Made by a program: the position numbers and the translations under genes. The notes under the pieces are model-generated. The model did not search any database, was not told where the DNA came from, and was given only the letters and a program-made list of their open reading frames with translations. A DNA stretch of 29,598 nucleotides from Elainellaceae cyanobacterium (GTDB taxonomy: Bacteria; Cyanobacteriota; Cyanobacteriia; CAZCXK01). Shown one piece after another: positions 24,090 to 29,598 of this stretch; positions within the stretch are counted from its first letter, which is position 1, and each line of letters starts with the position of its first letter. The stretch is from NCBI GenBank assembly GCA_051117555.1, contig JBNPEG010000242.1, positions 1-29,598 on the forward strand, given 5' to 3'.

Positions 24090-26492
24090 ATGAACTATAA
24101 ACAACCGACCAGCAATGCCTATGTACGCTGGTTTGAGCAACTTGGCGTTCACAATGTTGAAGACGTGGGTGGCAAAAACGCCTCTCTTGGCGAGATGATT
24201 CGTGCTCTCAAAGATGAAGGTGTTAGGGTTCCCGATGGTTTTGCAACGACGGCAGATGCCTATTGGAAGTATATCGAAACCCATGATGTCAAGGCTCAAA
24301 TTAAATCCCATTTAGACCAGTTAGAATCTGGGGAAAAATCCCTAGCGCAGGTTGGAAAGGCGATTCGGCGCTTGTTTTTGCAAACTCCATTCCCCGATGA
24401 GCTATCCCAATCTATTTGTGATGCATATCGAGAGTTAAGCCACCGATATGGCGTCAAGGAAGTGGATGTTGCTGTGAGAAGTAGCGCGACTGCTGAGGAT
24501 TTGCCCGAAGCGAGTTTTGCTGGACAGCAAGAAACCTTTCTAAATATTTCGGGTGAAAAAGAGCTATTGGATGCGTGCCGTCGATGCTATTCGTCCCTGT
24601 TTACCAATCGAGCGATCAGCTATCGCCAAGAGAAAAACTTTGATCACATGCAGGTTGCCCTGTCGATTGGGGTTCAAAAAATGGTGCGATCTGATAAAGC
24701 AAGTTCGGGCGTCATGTTCTCAATCGATACTGAGACAGGCTTTCCTGACGTCGCGCTGATTAGTGCCGCATGGGGATTGGGTGAAACCGTCGTGCAGGGC
24801 AGCGTGAACCCTGATCAATACACGGTTTTTAAGCCATTGCTGGCTAATTCTAGTCTGTGTCCGATGGTGGATAAGGTCAAGGGCAGTAAAGAAAAGAAAA
24901 TGGTCTATGCGACTGAGGGGAGTAAGACAACTGAAACCATCGAGACATCCGGGAAAGAGCGGCAAGCATTTGTTTTGAATGATGATGAGATTTTGCAACT
25001 GGCGCGCTGGGCTGCTGTAATCGAGGCGCACTATGGAAAACCGATGGATATGGAATGGGCTAAAGATGGTGACACAGGCGAACTCTTCATCGTTCAAGCT
25101 CGTCCTGAAACAGTCCAGTCTCAGCGATCGGCGGGTACGCTCAAAACGTATAAGCTAAAGGAACAGGGAGAGAAACTGCTGACTGGGCTGAGTATCGGAG
25201 ATGCGATCGCCACGGGTAAGATCTGTAGAGTTCTCAGCGTCGAAGACATTGATAAGGTTAAAGACGGCAGCATCCTAGTTACAGAAATGACTGACCCCGA
25301 CTGGGTTCCGGTGATGAAACGAGTAGCCGGGATCGTGACCGATTATGGGGGACGTACCTGTCATGCGGCGATCGTGAGCCGAGAATTGGGCATTCCGGCT
25401 ATCGTTGGCACGGGGGACGCCACCCGCACGTTGAAAGATGGTCATGAGGTCACTGTGTCATGTGCAGAAGGTGACCAAGGCAACATCTATGACGGACTGC
25501 TAGAGTTTGAAGCGGTTGATGTCAGCCTCGAAGACATCCCTGACACACGCACCCAACTCATGATGAATATTGCCAGCCCGTCGGCAGCATTTCAGTGGTG
25601 GCGGCTTCCCACCCAAGGCATCGGGCTTGCAAGGATGGAATTTATCATCAACAACATCGTCAAGATTCATCCGATGGCGCTGGTGCATTATGACGAGCTA
25701 AGCGATCGCTCAGCCTGGAAGCAAATCCGCGATATCACCAAAGGCTACACAGACAAGCGAGCCTATTTTGTCGATCGCCTCGCGTTAGGAATTTCTAAAA
25801 TTGCAGCATCCCAATATCCCGACCCGGTTATTGTTCGCATGAGCGACTTTAAGACCAATGAATATGCAAATTTGATTGGAGGTTCAGAGTTTGAACCGAA
25901 GGAAGAAAATCCGATGCTGGGGTTTCGGGGGGCATCTCGCTATTACAGCGATCGCTACCGCGAGGGATTTGCTTTAGAGTGTCAGGCCATTAAACGGGTT
26001 CGGGAAGTCATGGGGTTTGACAATGTCATCATCATGATTCCCTTCTGCCGAACGCTTGAAGAAGCAGACAAGGTTAACGAAGTACTGGCAGAAAACGGCT
26101 TAAGGCGTGGCGAGAATGGGCTGCAAGTCTATATGATGTGCGAAATTCCGTCGAATGTCGAGCTTGCGGATGAGTTCTCCAAGCGCTTTGACGGCTTTTC
26201 GATTGGCAGCAATGACCTGACCCAACTCGTGCTGGGTGTTGATCGCGATTCTGGGGAGCTGTCTCATTTATTTGACGAACGTAATCCTGCTGTCGAGCGG
26301 ATGATTCAGCGACTCATCAAAACGGCTCATGAAGCCGGACGAAAGGTCGGCATTTGTGGGCAAGGGCCGAGTGACTATCCTGAATTTGCTGAATTTTTGG
26401 TGGAGCAAGGCATCGACTCGATGTCGCTGAATCCAGATAGCGTTATTCAGGTCAAACATCACGTGGCCGAGATAGAGAGTCGTTTGACGTAG
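24090..26492 (+). CDS. ppsA: Phosphoenolpyruvate synthase
   Basis: VGGKNASLGEM, VAVRSSATAEDLP, GGRTCHAAIVSRE (phospho-His), DGFSIGSNDLTQ. Confidence 0.97.
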   Translation: MNYKQPTSNAYVRWFEQLGVHNVEDVGGKNASLGEMIRALKDEGVRVPDGFATTADAYWKYIETHDVKAQIKSHLDQLESGEKSLAQVGKAIRRLFLQTPFPDELSQSICDAYRELSHRYGVKEVDVAVRSSATAEDLPEASFAGQQETFLNISGEKELLDACRRCYSSLFTNRAISYRQEKNFDHMQVALSIGVQKMVRSDKASSGVMFSIDTETGFPDVALISAAWGLGETVVQGSVNPDQYTVFKPLLANSSLCPMVDKVKGSKEKKMVYATEGSKTTETIETSGKERQAFVLNDDEILQLARWAAVIEAHYGKPMDMEWAKDGDTGELFIVQARPETVQSQRSAGTLKTYKLKEQGEKLLTGLSIGDAIATGKICRVLSVEDIDKVKDGSILVTEMTDPDWVPVMKRVAGIVTDYGGRTCHAAIVSRELGIPAIVGTGDATRTLKDGHEVTVSCAEGDQGNIYDGLLEFEAVDVSLEDIPDTRTQLMMNIASPSAAFQWWRLPTQGIGLARMEFIINNIVKIHPMALVHYDELSDRSAWKQIRDITKGYTDKRAYFVDRLALGISKIAASQYPDPVIVRMSDFKTNEYANLIGGSEFEPKEENPMLGFRGASRYYSDRYREGFALECQAIKRVREVMGFDNVIIMIPFCRTLEEADKVNEVLAENGLRRGENGLQVYMMCEIPSNVELADEFSKRFDGFSIGSNDLTQLVLGVDRDSGELSHLFDERNPAVERMIQRLIKTAHEAGRKVGICGQGPSDYPEFAEFLVEQGIDSMSLNPDSVIQVKHHVAEIESRLT

Positions 26493-26557
26493 TGGCATTC
26501 AGCCGTTGTCAAGCGCGATCGCCCATGTCTTGATAATGGCGATCGCCCAAGTTCTGA

Positions 26558-26645
26558 GAATAACGGTGTCCATCCCCCGCCGCAGATAACCTCTAAATCA
26601 TACCGATTAACTTTCGGCGGTCGGTGTGCGTAGGCGTTGTTAGCT
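26558..26645 (-). other. attC-like site 1 (degenerate)
   Basis: Minus strand AGCTAAC ... GTTATTC, 88 bp, inner CCG-A-CCGC / GCGG-CGG stem. Confidence 0.6.
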
Positions 26646-26654
26646 TGCGTCTGC

Positions 26655-26725
26655 TACTTTTGAGTAGGTTTTTTTAGTACTGGCTAAAGCTTATGGATGG
26701 TGGGTTTCGTGCCTCAACCCAATCT
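26655..26725 (+). repeat. About 70-bp dispersed repeat with REP-like hairpin
   Basis: TGGGTTTCGTGCCTCAACCCA hairpin; similar to 29429-29498. Confidence 0.7.
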
Positions 26726-26740
26726 ATGTGGTCAGCTCAA

Positions 26741-26826
26741 CACCAACGGCTCAAATCAGCGGCAGCAGGAAAACTTGAACTCAGTACCAGATCTCTCAAA
26801 TGTCCGCTGCATTTGAATAGTTAGGC
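26741..26826 (-). other. attC site 2 (well formed)
   Basis: Minus strand GCCTAAC-TATTC-AAAT(G)CAGCGG(A)CA...TGCCGCTGATTTG-AGCC-GTT; two unpaired bases; starts 1 bp after the DUF1993 stop. Confidence 0.88.
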
Positions 26827-27404
26827 TTCACCCCTGTTTAAGGAACGGAACTAGATGCATCATATAATCTCGCTTTCCAATAGGTACACCAGCCATGCGA
26901 AGAATGTCGTAAGCAGTAACCATATGAAAGTAGAAGTTTGGCATCAAGAAATCATTCACATATGCGCTACCAGACATCTCGATGTAGAGTTCCTGACCAA
27001 GATCGATGCGCGTAGTCTCACTCAACTTTTCGTCTTCGGTGTCAACATCCGAGAGCAGTTCCCTAGTATTCGTTATATGTTCGTATGCCAGCACCAGAGA
27101 CGGCACTTCCGGATCTAAATTGTCCATTGGCTTGCCGTCACACCACAAAGCAAAGTTGCGTGGTTGATTGCAAGTAAAAGCGACTTGTGTACCCAACGGA
27201 AACATATCAGCCGCAATGCGCTCCTGCAGGAAAGATTCACTCCCATTGAAATGTGTCTGGGCTGAATTTAAGAGATGCTCAAGCGTTGTTAGGCGGCCTT
27301 TGAAGATAGTTTTGATCGATTCTATATTCTGACTTGACATCTTAGTGTTCTCCCGATACCTGTTTCAAAGAGTCTGGCCATGTTTAGAACTATTTTCAGC
27401 CTAA
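26747..27404 (-). mobile_element. Integron gene cassette carrying DUF1993
   Basis: Begins G|TTAGGC (27405-27399), the exact complement of its own R'' box GCCTAAC. Confidence 0.85.
26828..27340 (-). CDS. DUF1993 family protein
   Basis: RIAADMFPLGTQV, MPNFYFHMVTAYDILRMAGVPIGKRDY. Confidence 0.92.
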   Translation of the reverse strand: MSSQNIESIKTIFKGRLTTLEHLLNSAQTHFNGSESFLQERIAADMFPLGTQVAFTCNQPRNFALWCDGKPMDNLDPEVPSLVLAYEHITNTRELLSDVDTEDEKLSETTRIDLGQELYIEMSGSAYVNDFLMPNFYFHMVTAYDILRMAGVPIGKRDYMMHLVPFLKQG

Positions 27405-27552
27405 CTATTAATAGGCTGAAAATGTCAGCCTAAGATCCCAATTTGGGTGGATAGGCAGAATGATTCGGCATAACACCCCAAATTTCCTGCTTATGCAGAT
27501 GATTTCTGCATAGTACGCCGCTCAAGCTGAATAGCCAGAATCTTTCCGCATA
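27399..27552 (-). other. Putative attI region with four 21-bp palindromes at 40-bp period
   Basis: Core GTTAGGC without an attC hairpin upstream; palindromes at 27412, 27452, 27492 and 27532. Confidence 0.65.
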
Positions 27553-27591
27553 TCTTTAAATTCGTTACGGAGGTGAGCGAATGGTACTGTT

Positions 27592-27665
27592 AGTGCGATT
27601 CTCCGATGGAGAGGCTATATAGCCATTTCAGGCATGGCTGCGCTAGCGCCAACGCCTCTCAACCA
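27592..27665 (+). repeat. About 73-bp dispersed repeat, copy 1
   Basis: AGTGCGATTCTCCGATGGAGAGGCTATA...GGCATGGCT(G/A)CGCTAGCGCCAACGCC; near-identical to 29301-29372, partial copy at 10566-10592. Confidence 0.85.
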
Positions 27666-27681
27666 TCCAACCTTTCCATTA

Positions 27682-28171
27682 TCAGCTCCACGAACCCTGT
27701 CGTATGTGATTAAAGTTTTCAGCTTCTAGTCCAGAGTTACTCACATGTAAGTACAAAGGTAAATCGGCAGTCAAAACAAACGCAGGTAATCTTGAGGCTA
27801 CTGCTATTGCTATATCGGTTAATCCAAACCTATTGAACTCTGGCTCAGACACCAAGACCACAGAACTATCAGTATGCTCAGTGCACTTTCAGAGAAATTC
27901 AGCCATAGCTTCTCTTCCAAGCCGCCGTATATCATCACGCTCTTTGCCAAGTAAATTAGATATCTCAGTCATAATATATATGCGGTGTCGTAACGAGGCT
28001 GTTAAATGAATTGTTGTTTATAACATCTCCAAGTAAGTCATAATCATCTTCTACAAACGTCGAAAGAGTCTTGGCTTTTTGAATCAGTAATGAATCTTTG
28101 CCGCCAATAAACAGGAGGAGTAGCAGATTAGTATCCAGAAGAAGGATTTTGGAACGCGTCGATACCTTCAT
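27682..28171 (-). pseudogene. PIN-domain toxin pseudogene
   Basis: LLLDTNLLLL..TTPHI, then a frameshift at an ATAT duplication (about 27972-27981); continues MTEISNL..FL*..FGLTDIAI..VLTADLPLY with an internal TGA near 27889-27891. Confidence 0.85.
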
Positions 28172-28283
28172 TGTATTCAAGCATCAAGTCCTGCAGGTTG
28201 CTGTTTGCGTATAAATCCCTGACGTAATCGATTGCTGTTTCAACAGCACTCTTGACACTTATGTGATCTTCTCGATTTTTCAT
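28128..28283 (-). pseudogene. Truncated partner (probable antitoxin) of the PIN gene
   Basis: 51-aa ORF MKNREDHISVKSAVETAIDYVRDLY..LQDLMLE running out of frame into the PIN start. Confidence 0.5.
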
Positions 28284-28359
28284 AAATCAGGTTGAAACAC
28301 TGTATTCAGGTTAGCAAGGATTAAATAGCAAGAACTAGTACAGCGATCGCACTCAGGAT

Positions 28360-28445
28360 GTCTAGCAACCAGGATAAGCGGCTGTAAGCCACCTGTGCAA
28401 TCCCACTAGAGGCTTTCAACAGTCCACTTCATTGACTTGTTAGCT
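28360..28445 (-). other. attC-like site 3 (R' box mutated GTT to GCT)
   Basis: Minus strand AGCTAAC-AAGTC-AAT(G)AAGTGG(A)CTGT...ACAGCCGCTTATCC-TGGTT-GCTAGAC, 86 bp. Confidence 0.72.
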
Positions 28446-28569
28446 GACTCTTGCCACCGATCGCCCCTCAATCACTCCGCATCTATCACTCAGCGATCGC
28501 CAAAATGGAGTTTGATCTTGAACACCGACAGATAACGTTTCGGCATGTCATCATTGAGATACGGAAGCC

Positions 28570-28655
28570 GTATAACGTTCTGGCTAAGCGGCTGCAAGTA
28601 ACCTTTGCGACACCGACAAGTTCTAGCAACAGCCACTCCAGCCAGATTGTTGTGC
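28570..28655 (-). other. attC-like site 4
   Basis: Minus strand GCACAAC-AATCT-GGCTGGAGTGGCTG...CAGCCGCTTAGCC-AGAAC-GTTATAC, 86 bp, 19 bp after the toxin stop. Confidence 0.72.
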
Positions 28656-28674
28656 TGCGCCGCTTACGCAATTA

Positions 28675-29001
28675 TTAGGAGCCTCCCACTTCGATTACTT
28701 CCCCTGGCGAAATAGTACTCAGCACACTGCAAACATCAGGTATCAGAGGCACTAAATCTGGCAACCTATTACTGCGTGCTACAAGAACAACAACTGCTAC
28801 TCCAGCTTGCTCTAAGTTCTGCTGATACCGCAAATTTTGATCTGTTGTAAGTAGAATTGTGAAGCCCTCTTGATTCATGAACCGCAACAACTCACCATTC
28901 TTTTTTCCTGACCATTCCATCTCAACAACTGTGCGTATCTTGTAATCAGTCAGTTCTCGCTTAAGGGGACGTGGGACCCATTCATCAAGCAGGATTCGCA
29001 T
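28675..29001 (-). CDS. DUF5615 family PIN-like toxin
   Basis: MRILLDE, WSGKKNGELL, LLTTDQNLRYQQNL; overlaps the DUF433 gene. Confidence 0.88.
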   Translation of the reverse strand: MRILLDEWVPRPLKRELTDYKIRTVVEMEWSGKKNGELLRFMNQEGFTILLTTDQNLRYQQNLEQAGVAVVVLVARSNRLPDLVPLIPDVCSVLSTISPGEVIEVGGS

Positions 29002-29209
29002 AGGCTGTTAGCATTTCCTTTGCTAACTCAAGAGCTGCGATTGCTTGCTCACGCCGAACACTTGGAAAATGATCTAAGAATTCATCGAGCGGATCACCGG
29101 CTTTGAGATAATCGAGTAACGTTTTCACTGGCACACGAGTTCCAACAAAAACAGGGGTTCCTCCCAGGATGTCAGGGTCACTATGAATAACACGCGCTGC
29201 GGTTGTCAT
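28985..29209 (-). CDS. DUF433 family antitoxin
   Basis: DPDILGGTPVFVGTRVPV..LDEFLDHFPSV. Confidence 0.93.
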   Translation of the reverse strand: MTTAARVIHSDPDILGGTPVFVGTRVPVKTLLDYLKAGDPLDEFLDHFPSVRREQAIAALELAKEMLTAYANPA

Positions 29210-29300
29210 ATCAGCTATCCAATAGCAGGAATCTCTTTGATCTTAGCCTACAACTCCTACTCAAAACGCCTATCAGAAGCGATCGCCCACATACGTTCCC

Positions 29301-29372
29301 AGTGCGATTCTCCGATGGAGAGGCTATAGCCCTTTAGGGCATGGCTACGCTAGCGCCAACGCCCCTCAACCA
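29301..29372 (+). repeat. About 72-bp dispersed repeat, copy 2
   Basis: Direct repeat of 27592-27665. Confidence 0.85.
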
Positions 29373-29428
29373 CTCAACATCTCTTATTCAGTGGGGTGGG
29401 CACTGCCAGCCTTACCGCTATCCTCTAT

Positions 29429-29498
29429 TACTTGTGAGTAGGGATTGCCTAGTTGGCTAAAGCCTATAGAGGTTGGGTTTCGTGCCTCAACCCAACCT
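29429..29498 (+). repeat. About 70-bp dispersed repeat with REP-like hairpin, copy 2
   Basis: AGGTTGGGTTTCGTGCCTCAACCCAACCT; similar to 26655-26725. Confidence 0.7.
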
Positions 29499-29598
29499 TG
29501 TATATAAGCGGTACGCCCCTCGGATTTATCCTAAAAGCATATCGCTGAGGGGAGGACTCCGAACCCAACCTCAAGCCTCCAAGCTTGCTGTGTAGATT

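Follow-up and report, generated by a model that had tools for sequence, protein, structure and literature searches.

Downstream of the ppsA gene of an Elainellaceae cyanobacterium, we have uncovered a small array of integron cassettes that very probably represents a cluster of attC sites without an integron-integrase (CALIN), built around a degenerate integron platform. The array lies at one end of a stretch of 29,598 nt, here called the window, which is the whole of contig C182 (JBNPEG010000242.1) of assembly GCA_051117555.1, with a size of 6.06 Mb in 256 contigs. This source genome is referred to as G000, and comparisons were drawn over 41 sampled genomes of the class, counting G000 itself, with G002 belonging to the same genus. 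An initial annotation of the window had already proposed a decaying chromosomal integron or CALIN, possibly serviced in trans, a reading which is partly supported: the sites are attC sites, the locus is an array of cassettes in decay, and its contig has no integrase gene (intI). With its four sites, the locus displays at least two attC no more than 4 kb apart, the spacing by which CALINs are recognized.

The four attC sites and their family

The minus strand of the window corresponds to the top strand of the cassettes, and the array lies just past the convergent 3' end of ppsA. It carries the following sites, scored with our covariance model R1:

26558 to 26645, minus strand: attC site W_A, the last of the array; R'' box AGCTAAC, R' box GTTATTC; 78.1 bits
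26741 to 26826, minus strand: attC site W_B, belonging to the DUF1993 cassette; R'' box GCCTAAC, R' box GTTGGTG; 78.0 bits
28360 to 28445, minus strand: attC site W_C, degenerate; R'' box AGCTAAC, aligned R' box GCT; 59.2 bits
28570 to 28655, minus strand: attC site W_D, behind a toxin-antitoxin-like gene pair; R'' box GCACAAC, R' box GTTATAC; 64.5 bits

All four are 86 to 88 nt long and co-oriented, with spacings of 95 nt, 1533 nt and 124 nt. Their identification as attC rests on R1, which was built here from a hand-structured alignment of 19 full sites. A sequence profile made from the sites gave back exactly the minus-strand coordinates of the initial annotation, and R1, applied to the entire window with all filtering disabled, found the same four sites of 86 to 88 nt; the next best match, well away from the array at 2007 to 2077 on the plus strand, reached only 17.5 bits (E=0.03) and is probably due to chance. 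The AAC and GTT boxes pointed out in that annotation are carried by the four sites, the box described as mutated to GCT being that of W_C, and the two sites said to follow directly after stop codons are W_B, beginning 1 nt past the DUF1993 stop, and W_D, 19 nt past the stop of the DUF5615-like gene. A search of Rfam gave no family match in 26400 to 29598 at E<=1.

RNAalifold on the raw MAFFT alignment gave 6 inner pairs; the full structure was written by hand and then tested. It consists of an R box, an unpaired spacer of 3 nt, and an L stem whose 5' arm, on the top strand, is interrupted by two bulges of one base each (alignment columns 18 and 26), and in the window sites the same unpaired 3-nt spacer is combined with a loop of about 35 nt. 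Over the 19 sites, 84.0% of the cells of the R''/R' plus L''/L' structure are paired vs 67.0% in column shuffles, with none of 500 shuffles reaching the observed value, and sliding the partners by one to three columns left only 30-48% of the cells paired. Compensatory changes were seen in 11 of the 19 pairs, 11 of the 16 L-stem pairs being changed on both sides, as in a stem that is kept by structure and not by sequence, and the covariation score of 0.409 compares with 0.147 in shuffles and 0.06-0.13 for slid partners. The columns of AAC and GTT, the triplets conserved in the consensus of R'' (RYYYAAC) and R' (GTTRRRY), are paired in 94.7% of the cells.

As a benchmark, R1 was applied to a Klebsiella class 1 integron with the cassettes dfrA12, gcuF and aadA2 (plasmid NZ_CP079685.1), where its three best minus-strand matches (29.6, 15.0 and 8.4 bits) are the three cassette junctions. 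Like these class 1 sites, those of the window have R'' and R' boxes, a short unpaired spacer, L stems and two bulges, and in the aadA2, gcuF and dfrA12 sites the bulges occupy the same two positions of the model; the two unpaired bases noticed earlier are real and lie where attC sites have them, on the R''/L'' arm, where extrahelical bases mark the bottom strand as the recombining one. On the top strand, bulge 1 is a G here and a C in class 1, while bulge 2 is an A in both. Unlike the class 1 sites, which measure 60-90 nt, those of the window are longer, at 86-88 nt, with a loop of about 35 nt that is conserved. In general, attC sites have a total length of about 57-141 nt. For the terminal loop, the part of Cury et al. 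(2016, PMC4889954) that treats it gives a range of 20-100 nt.

Within G000, a profile search with nhmmer found 22 related sites on 16 contigs, and R1 found 24 at E<=1, namely the 19 seeds and 5 weaker ones. W_A is about 80% like the attC site beside the intI of contig C211, and W_B is 82% like the site that follows hicA on C168. At E<=1e-6, the family occurs in 38 of the 41 sampled genomes, and family attC sites are also retained by 18 of the 20 genomes that gave no intI match at E<=1e-30. Numbers per genome at E<=1e-6 vary widely among relatives, with 85 sites in G015, 43 in G014, 34 each in G002 and G003, and 19 in G000.

Another reading of these hairpins is that they are cyanobacterial palindromic repeats, resembling repetitive extragenic palindromes (REP) or terminators, which happen to follow genes. 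Small dispersed hairpin repeats are abundant in cyanobacterial genomes, two such families are in fact present in this locus, and the folds of single sites are weak. The sites are, however, strand-specific, W_B scoring 78 bits on the minus strand and 8.1 bits on the plus strand; they carry AAC and GTT boxes as well as bulges at the positions of class 1 attC; in at least six loci they have a consistent placement, upstream of intI and on the opposite strand; and homology between cassettes breaks exactly at G/TT. We therefore disfavour the repeat explanation as extremely improbable. The initial annotation had named two ways in which its attC reading might fail, namely a lack of fit to an attC covariance model and a genome-wide occurrence with no tie to gene ends; the sites fit a model of attC type, our own, and 13 of the 24 lie no more than 50 nt behind a co-oriented open reading frame (ORF) of at least 70 aa, a situation found for 334 of 5000 random positions (6.7%) on the same contigs. 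Covariance, bulge positions and the intI-linked geometry all agree with that reading, and the window sites are attC sites of cyanobacterial type.

An orphan attI-type site within the array

The initial annotation had overlooked one element in the middle of the array, through which the proximal part of the locus becomes a degenerate integron platform and not a bare array:

27405 to 27599, minus strand: attI-type site "E", with four imperfect boxes TATGCGGAAA..TTCTG..TAT and a G/TT crossover between 27405 and 27404

Site E is 93% identical to G000:C7:4241-4437, and homologues lie directly upstream of intI in G014 (3 loci), G002:C13 and G031:C328, that is, in five copies from three genomes. The same architecture is displayed by the attI region of G000:C168 and G002:C66, orthologues that diverge right after GTTAG. 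In 15 aligned copies, conservation stops at ...AATAGTTA, with divergent, GTTRRRY-like sequence beyond the GTT. Of the 14 copies with enough flank, 11 have a family attC no more than 4.3 kb away, on the side and strand where one should lie; among the remaining three, the copy on C7 has only a weak attC match (E=0.04) and two are without any.

Judging from G014 and G002:C13, the start of an intI should lie near 27640, in plus-strand orientation. A dispersed 85-nt repeat and a decayed gene module occupy that place, so the proximal part of the locus is best described as an integron platform minus the integrase; the layout of a complete integron, with an adjacent and divergent intI, is not found at the attI-type site of the window.

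Six copies of the element have no integrase: those of the window and G000:C7, and those of G002 on C81, C31, C56 and C20. They have a common left border, ...CGC/ACTAA, which lies inside a GCGATCGC palindrome in the five copies other than the window's and which argues for one ancestral loss of intI. Right after G/TT, each of the six is followed by a different first cassette, and they occupy non-orthologous places in two congeneric genomes; if the common border reflects common descent, the cassettes would have entered attI sites that were already without an integrase. That orphan attI-type sites of this kind are working landing pads served in trans by one integrase, as a "distributed integron" that captures cassettes at several points of the chromosome, is a tentative idea that we consider rather doubtful.

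Related elements were seen at two other places. In the closed genome of G027, with no intI at E<=1e-30, several attI-type elements lie inside arrays, and an attI-like remnant at G000:C248:6700-6760 (...CCGTCTAATCATTG/TTGGCC), with no intI nearby, heads a BrnT toxin-antitoxin cassette that is found in four other genomes from precisely this G/TT onward.

Integrases in the genome and its relatives

The description of the locus as being without an integrase holds for contig C182 and not for the genome. A search of the whole genome with TIGR02249 at E<=10 gave no match on C182, which ends 943 nt past W_D (28655). An intact intI is located at G000:C211:1230-2198, with a TIGR02249 score of 466 bits against a cut-off of 265 bits. 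Its product, a tyrosine recombinase, aligns over the full length with VchIntIA (PDB 2a3v; E=2.6e-87), showing no gap against residues 6-318 through the IntI-specific extra domain, and is 53.5% identical to IntI1. Upstream and divergent of this gene lies a cassette for an OB-fold protein of 141 aa, followed by a family attC (86 bits). A second intI, on C168, is decayed to fragments with an internal deletion of about 720 bp in comparison to G002:C66, and the array behind it includes hicA. Over the sample, an integrase above the cut-off was detected in 18 of the 41 genomes. The arrangement in which attC sites precede the intI start and lie on the other strand is repeated in G017, G002 (two loci), G014 and plasmid pB of Kovacikia minuta.

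On C211, C168, and G002 C13 and C66, the intI stop is closely followed by a block of about 530 bp. The product of this block is a small hypothetical protein (G000:C211:2436-2744; G000:C7:4674-4976) with database members of 78 aa; where intI is absent, the block also abuts the orphan attI-type element, and it has at least 13 copies in G000. The protein gave no match in Pfam or NCBIfam, and its homologues, some of them from Elainellaceae, are all named "hypothetical protein".

The presence of a complete integron on another contig raises the alternative that the window is simply its distal end, separated only by assembly breaks at repeats. The C211 array exits through base 1 of its contig on the minus strand, with intI on the plus strand, and the window array runs off at 29598, so that the two are compatible in orientation; the window ends in a high-copy repeat, attC types are common to the two arrays, and several more attC sites lie no further than 2 kb from the end of a contig (C100, C121, C190, C53, C204). 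Looking for exact end overlaps between contigs, we found none, and so none that would join the window to C211. Moreover, the window has its own attI-type site in mid-array, where a single canonical integron would have none, and G002 reveals several attI-headed arrays away from its two intI genes, which means that separate clusters are the norm in this lineage. Taken with these points, the split-integron alternative is unlikely, and we keep to a CALIN around its own degenerate platform.

Cassette boundaries and turnover

The boundaries of the cassettes are canonical G/TT crossovers. The DUF1993 cassette has a close counterpart on contig C7 of G013, a genome of another family, at 97% identity (521/539 and 46/49 identities), which points to recent transfer. 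The homology runs from GTTAGGCTG at 27405 to AGCCTAAC ending at 26820 and starts precisely at the G of G/TTAGGCTG (27405); the element preceding this point is an attC in G013 and the attI-type site in the window. In addition, the TTAGGCT at the start of the cassette fully complements the AGCCTAA found in the R'' box of its own attC, which is the prediction of a circular cassette intermediate. The first cassette of C211 displays the same feature, its GTTGTGC being complementary to GCACAAC at 7/7 positions, and the BrnT cassette of C248 has a common 5' G/TT start in 4 genomes and also ends at the G of R' in 2.

For the gene pair carrying DUF433, the stretch 28647 to 29252 is 87% identical to G005:C121 and 83% identical to G014:C58, with homology stopping at AACAA of the R'' box, and the 5' boundary of its cassette is likely at GTTGTAGGC, 29254. 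The attC core of this pair is of different types in G000 on the one hand and G005 and G014 on the other. A similar stop at R'' is seen in some copies of the cassettes of C248.

At such loci, genomes that are close relatives differ in their cassettes. After ppsA, G002 has no array and no attC, and the neighbour of ppsA there corresponds to contig C214 of G000; likewise, the C69 locus of G000 and its ortholog G002:C81, whose array is attI-headed, carry different cassettes.

State of the array

Whether this array still takes part in recombination is a separate question, and the chance that any of the four window sites is still in use is about even. W_A and W_B look intact, while W_C looks dead. 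In an active system, the bottom (plus) strand of each attC would fold and the folded strand would be bound by the intact IntI of C211; IntI would then excise cassettes by recombination of attC with attC, and the excised cassettes could be reinserted at an attI, either the integrase's own or possibly an orphan one.

Several observations weigh against a functional array of this kind or against parts of our interpretation. W_C has lost most of its lower stem, and the GTT of its R' is shifted 3 nt inward, as seen from both alignment and fold. Folded one by one on the top strand and compared with shuffled sequence, the sites gave z values of +0.67, -0.95, -1.34 and -1.79, with W_A (+0.67) folding no better than the shuffles and the other three weakly better; because single folds are not clearly above shuffles, the significance of the hairpin rests on the site family as a whole. 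The complementarity between R' and R'' that distinguishes the DUF1993 cassette reaches only 5/8, 5/8 and 5/7 in the other three cassettes of the window. The homologies of the DUF1993 and DUF433-pair cassettes end at the AAC of R'' (26820 and 28647), without sharing the attC core. A scan for promoters and terminators found nothing above chance, also for promoter-like sites in the attI-type element, with 6 such sites against 5.0 expected over 26500 to 29598. Finally, service of the window sites in trans by the genome's IntI, while plausible, is something we purely infer. As for the stops at R'', they are not predicted by the canonical cassette model, in which homology would extend across the core of the attC; that cores are swapped between attC sites, or that the R'' box serves as a secondary target, can be guessed as their origin.

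A number of these features would suit a fossil, that is, an array whose sites are true attC by descent, but which is recombined by no integrase and decays in place. Apart from the weak R'/R'' complementarity at three of four cassettes, the two gene-less cassettes, the frameshifted module, the inserted dispersed repeats, the degenerate W_C and the missing intI all fit this explanation. Yet the R1 scores of W_A and W_B, at 78 bits, match those of sites beside intact integrases (70-86 bits), an intact IntI is encoded in the genome, the DUF1993 cassette is 97% identical in another family, and at orthologous attI sites congeners have different first cassettes. We regard the fossil as a serious possibility that falls somewhat short of even odds.

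Public sequencing data were searched for recombination products. None of the runs holds more than 0.18 of the sampled words. In four public runs, all of them represented by contigs and yielding only fragments, a single joint was found, leading from 26668 to 29456 (run X2), between two copies of a small dispersed repeat and in an organism less than 95% alike; no cassette-excision joint was present in these four contig runs, and contigs could not show a rare joint.

Cargo, flanks and repeats

Besides the recombination sites, the locus comprises the following features:

24090 to 26492, plus strand: ppsA, phosphoenolpyruvate synthase-like, 800 aa, from the ORF listing; chromosomal flank converging on the array
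26509 to 26557, minus strand: array-terminal tail of about 50 nt with two GCGATCGC (HIP1) palindromes, directly after the R' box of W_A
26646 to 26740, minus strand: gene-less cassette remnant of 95 nt, no ORF of at least 60 aa, holding the hairpin repeat 26655 to 26725
26828 to 27340, minus strand: intact DUF1993 gene, 170 aa (Pfam PF09351, E=1.3e-39), in a cassette running from 27404 down to 26747
27592 to 27676: dispersed structured repeat of 85 nt with a GCGCTAGCGC palindrome, joined to site E by a short common stretch
27682 to 28283, minus strand: decayed two-gene module, four ORF fragments of 51, 71, 43 and 59 aa, with stops and frame breaks in translation
28446 to 28569, minus strand: gene-less cassette remnant of 124 nt, no credible ORF; a plus-strand ORF of 75 aa is without a Pfam match
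28675 to 29209, minus strand: two-gene pair, DUF433 (28985 to 29209, 74 aa) and DUF5615/PIN_10-like (28675 to 29001, 108 aa), overlapping by 17 nt
29481 to 29598: high-copy repeat ending the contig, 98-100% identical at or within about 15 nt of the ends of seven contigs

Read along the minus strand, the order is the DUF433/DUF5615-like cassette with W_D, an empty cassette with W_C, the decayed two-gene module and the 85-nt repeat, followed by the orphan attI-type site, the DUF1993 cassette with W_B, inserted precisely at the G/TT of this site, a second empty cassette with W_A, the tail, and the 3' end of ppsA. The placement directly downstream of ppsA given by the initial annotation is borne out, with the gene at 24090 to 26492 and the array just beyond. 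In G002, the ppsA ortholog is 92% identical, and homology ends at window position 26508, 16 nt past the stop codon. The tail with its two palindromes recurs together with W_A at the end of a small array on G000:C69, and it also adjoins the last attC at G002:C81:123337-123391, with 93% identity.

Regarding the cargo, the earlier assignment of DUF1993 is confirmed by the Pfam match listed above, and the two gene-less remnants reported with it correspond to the spacers of 95 nt and 124 nt. Both genes of the DUF433/DUF5615-like pair are intact. The claim of a DUF433/DUF5615 toxin-antitoxin pair holds insofar as the pair is toxin-antitoxin-like and DUF433 is matched with E=1.3e-19; DUF5615, at 23.6 bits, stays just under the Pfam cut-off of 23.8. 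A second DUF433/DUF5615 pair of the genome, with 58 bits for DUF5615, lies at G000:C100:320-1100 beside an attC on the opposite strand, as an inverted toxin-antitoxin cassette.

The module called a decayed PIN module is indeed decayed, as evidenced by its four fragments and frame breaks; the PIN assignment found no Pfam match. Its intact counterpart in G085 is a pair of 97 aa and 166 aa, and the 71-aa fragment was matched in 14 of 200 other genomes of the class. Pfam searches with the four fragments and the intact homologue gave no PIN domain, the best match being DUF188 with E=0.042; NCBIfam gave nothing for the module, and a search of plasmid DNA gave no match to it. A protein language-model atlas search puts it near clusters named PIN-domain proteins, and a PIN-like identity may be followed as a lead only.

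The 85-nt repeat has a second copy at 29301 to 29383 and further ones on C251, C48, C194, C196, C71 and C42, with a shorter core on many contigs, and the 70-nt hairpin repeat at 26655 to 26725 has copies at 29429 to 29498 and on C251, C48 and C192. Both were considered as divergent attC sites and rejected, giving no R1 signal, occurring in high copy number elsewhere, and having no AAC...GTT frame. The repeat at the contig end recurs at the ends of C10, C12, C238, C193, C84, C211 (far end) and C27, with a 98% match on C174 from 29472, so that at least eight contig ends have it in common, and probably marks the border of a multicopy element that has been collapsed.

Relation to known integrons

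CALINs, cyanobacterial integrons, and an attC model for Cyanobacteria are already published, and the locus of the window is a genuine but ordinary array of a known type. The parts of Cury et al. (2016, PMC4889954) that concern CALINs define the class, state that integrons occur in Cyanobacteria, and include loss of intI and rearrangement among CALIN origins; the same work, where it turns to attI, describes this site as unknown for most integrons. As reported in the portion of Nemergut et al. (2008, PMC2426708) on these bacteria, intI is found in Cyanobacteria. A covariance model specific to cyanobacterial attC is presented in the relevant part of Ghaly et al. (2021, PMC8352920), and sites like ours may already be contained in the lists of that study. 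Among the papers listed in full-text searches, none is devoted to cyanobacterial attI or orphan attI sites.

Compared with the CALIN description in the pertinent part of PMC4889954, our locus agrees in having two or more attC separated by less than 4 kb, with no intI detected on their contig but one encoded in another part of the genome, and cargo other than antibiotic resistance. Unlike a bare CALIN, the window cluster keeps an attI-type site, and its upstream side is cut by the contig end. It resembles the taxon-specific sites, as far as the corresponding part of PMC8352920 describes them, in its class-wide conservation and in a loop that is conserved as well as the stems.

A complete integron is carried by plasmid pB of Kovacikia minuta CCNUW1 (NZ_CP083584.1), with an annotated integron integrase 69.9% identical and five attC of the same family. 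In NZ_CP083584.1:24018-40983, where the feature table shown consists of coding sequences only, the five attC lie within 8 kb upstream of the intI start on the opposite strand. This integron is complete and plasmid-borne, whereas the window locus is chromosomal, located by ppsA, and without an integrase. One cassette of pB encodes a DNA cytosine methyltransferase.

Sedentary integrons of Vibrio are characterized by homogeneous attC sites of a species type, many cassettes of unknown function, and toxin-antitoxin pairs. Like them, G000 has homogeneous attC sites, numerous cassettes whose function is unknown, and cargo of the toxin-antitoxin type, including HicA, BrnT, PIN and DUF433/DUF5615; unlike them, it has its sites scattered over at least 16 contigs, singly or in numerous short clusters, and not in one long array adjoining intI.

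This means for annotation that the proper entry for the locus is a cluster of integron cassettes that includes an orphan attI, in a genome that is integron-positive with one intact and one decayed intI. The integron concept is unchanged by it. The attI-type element provides a sequence handle for cyanobacterial attI sites, and the presence of attC in 38 of 41 genomes vs an integrase in 18 of 41 indicates that cassette clusters outlive or outnumber integrases in filamentous cyanobacteria.

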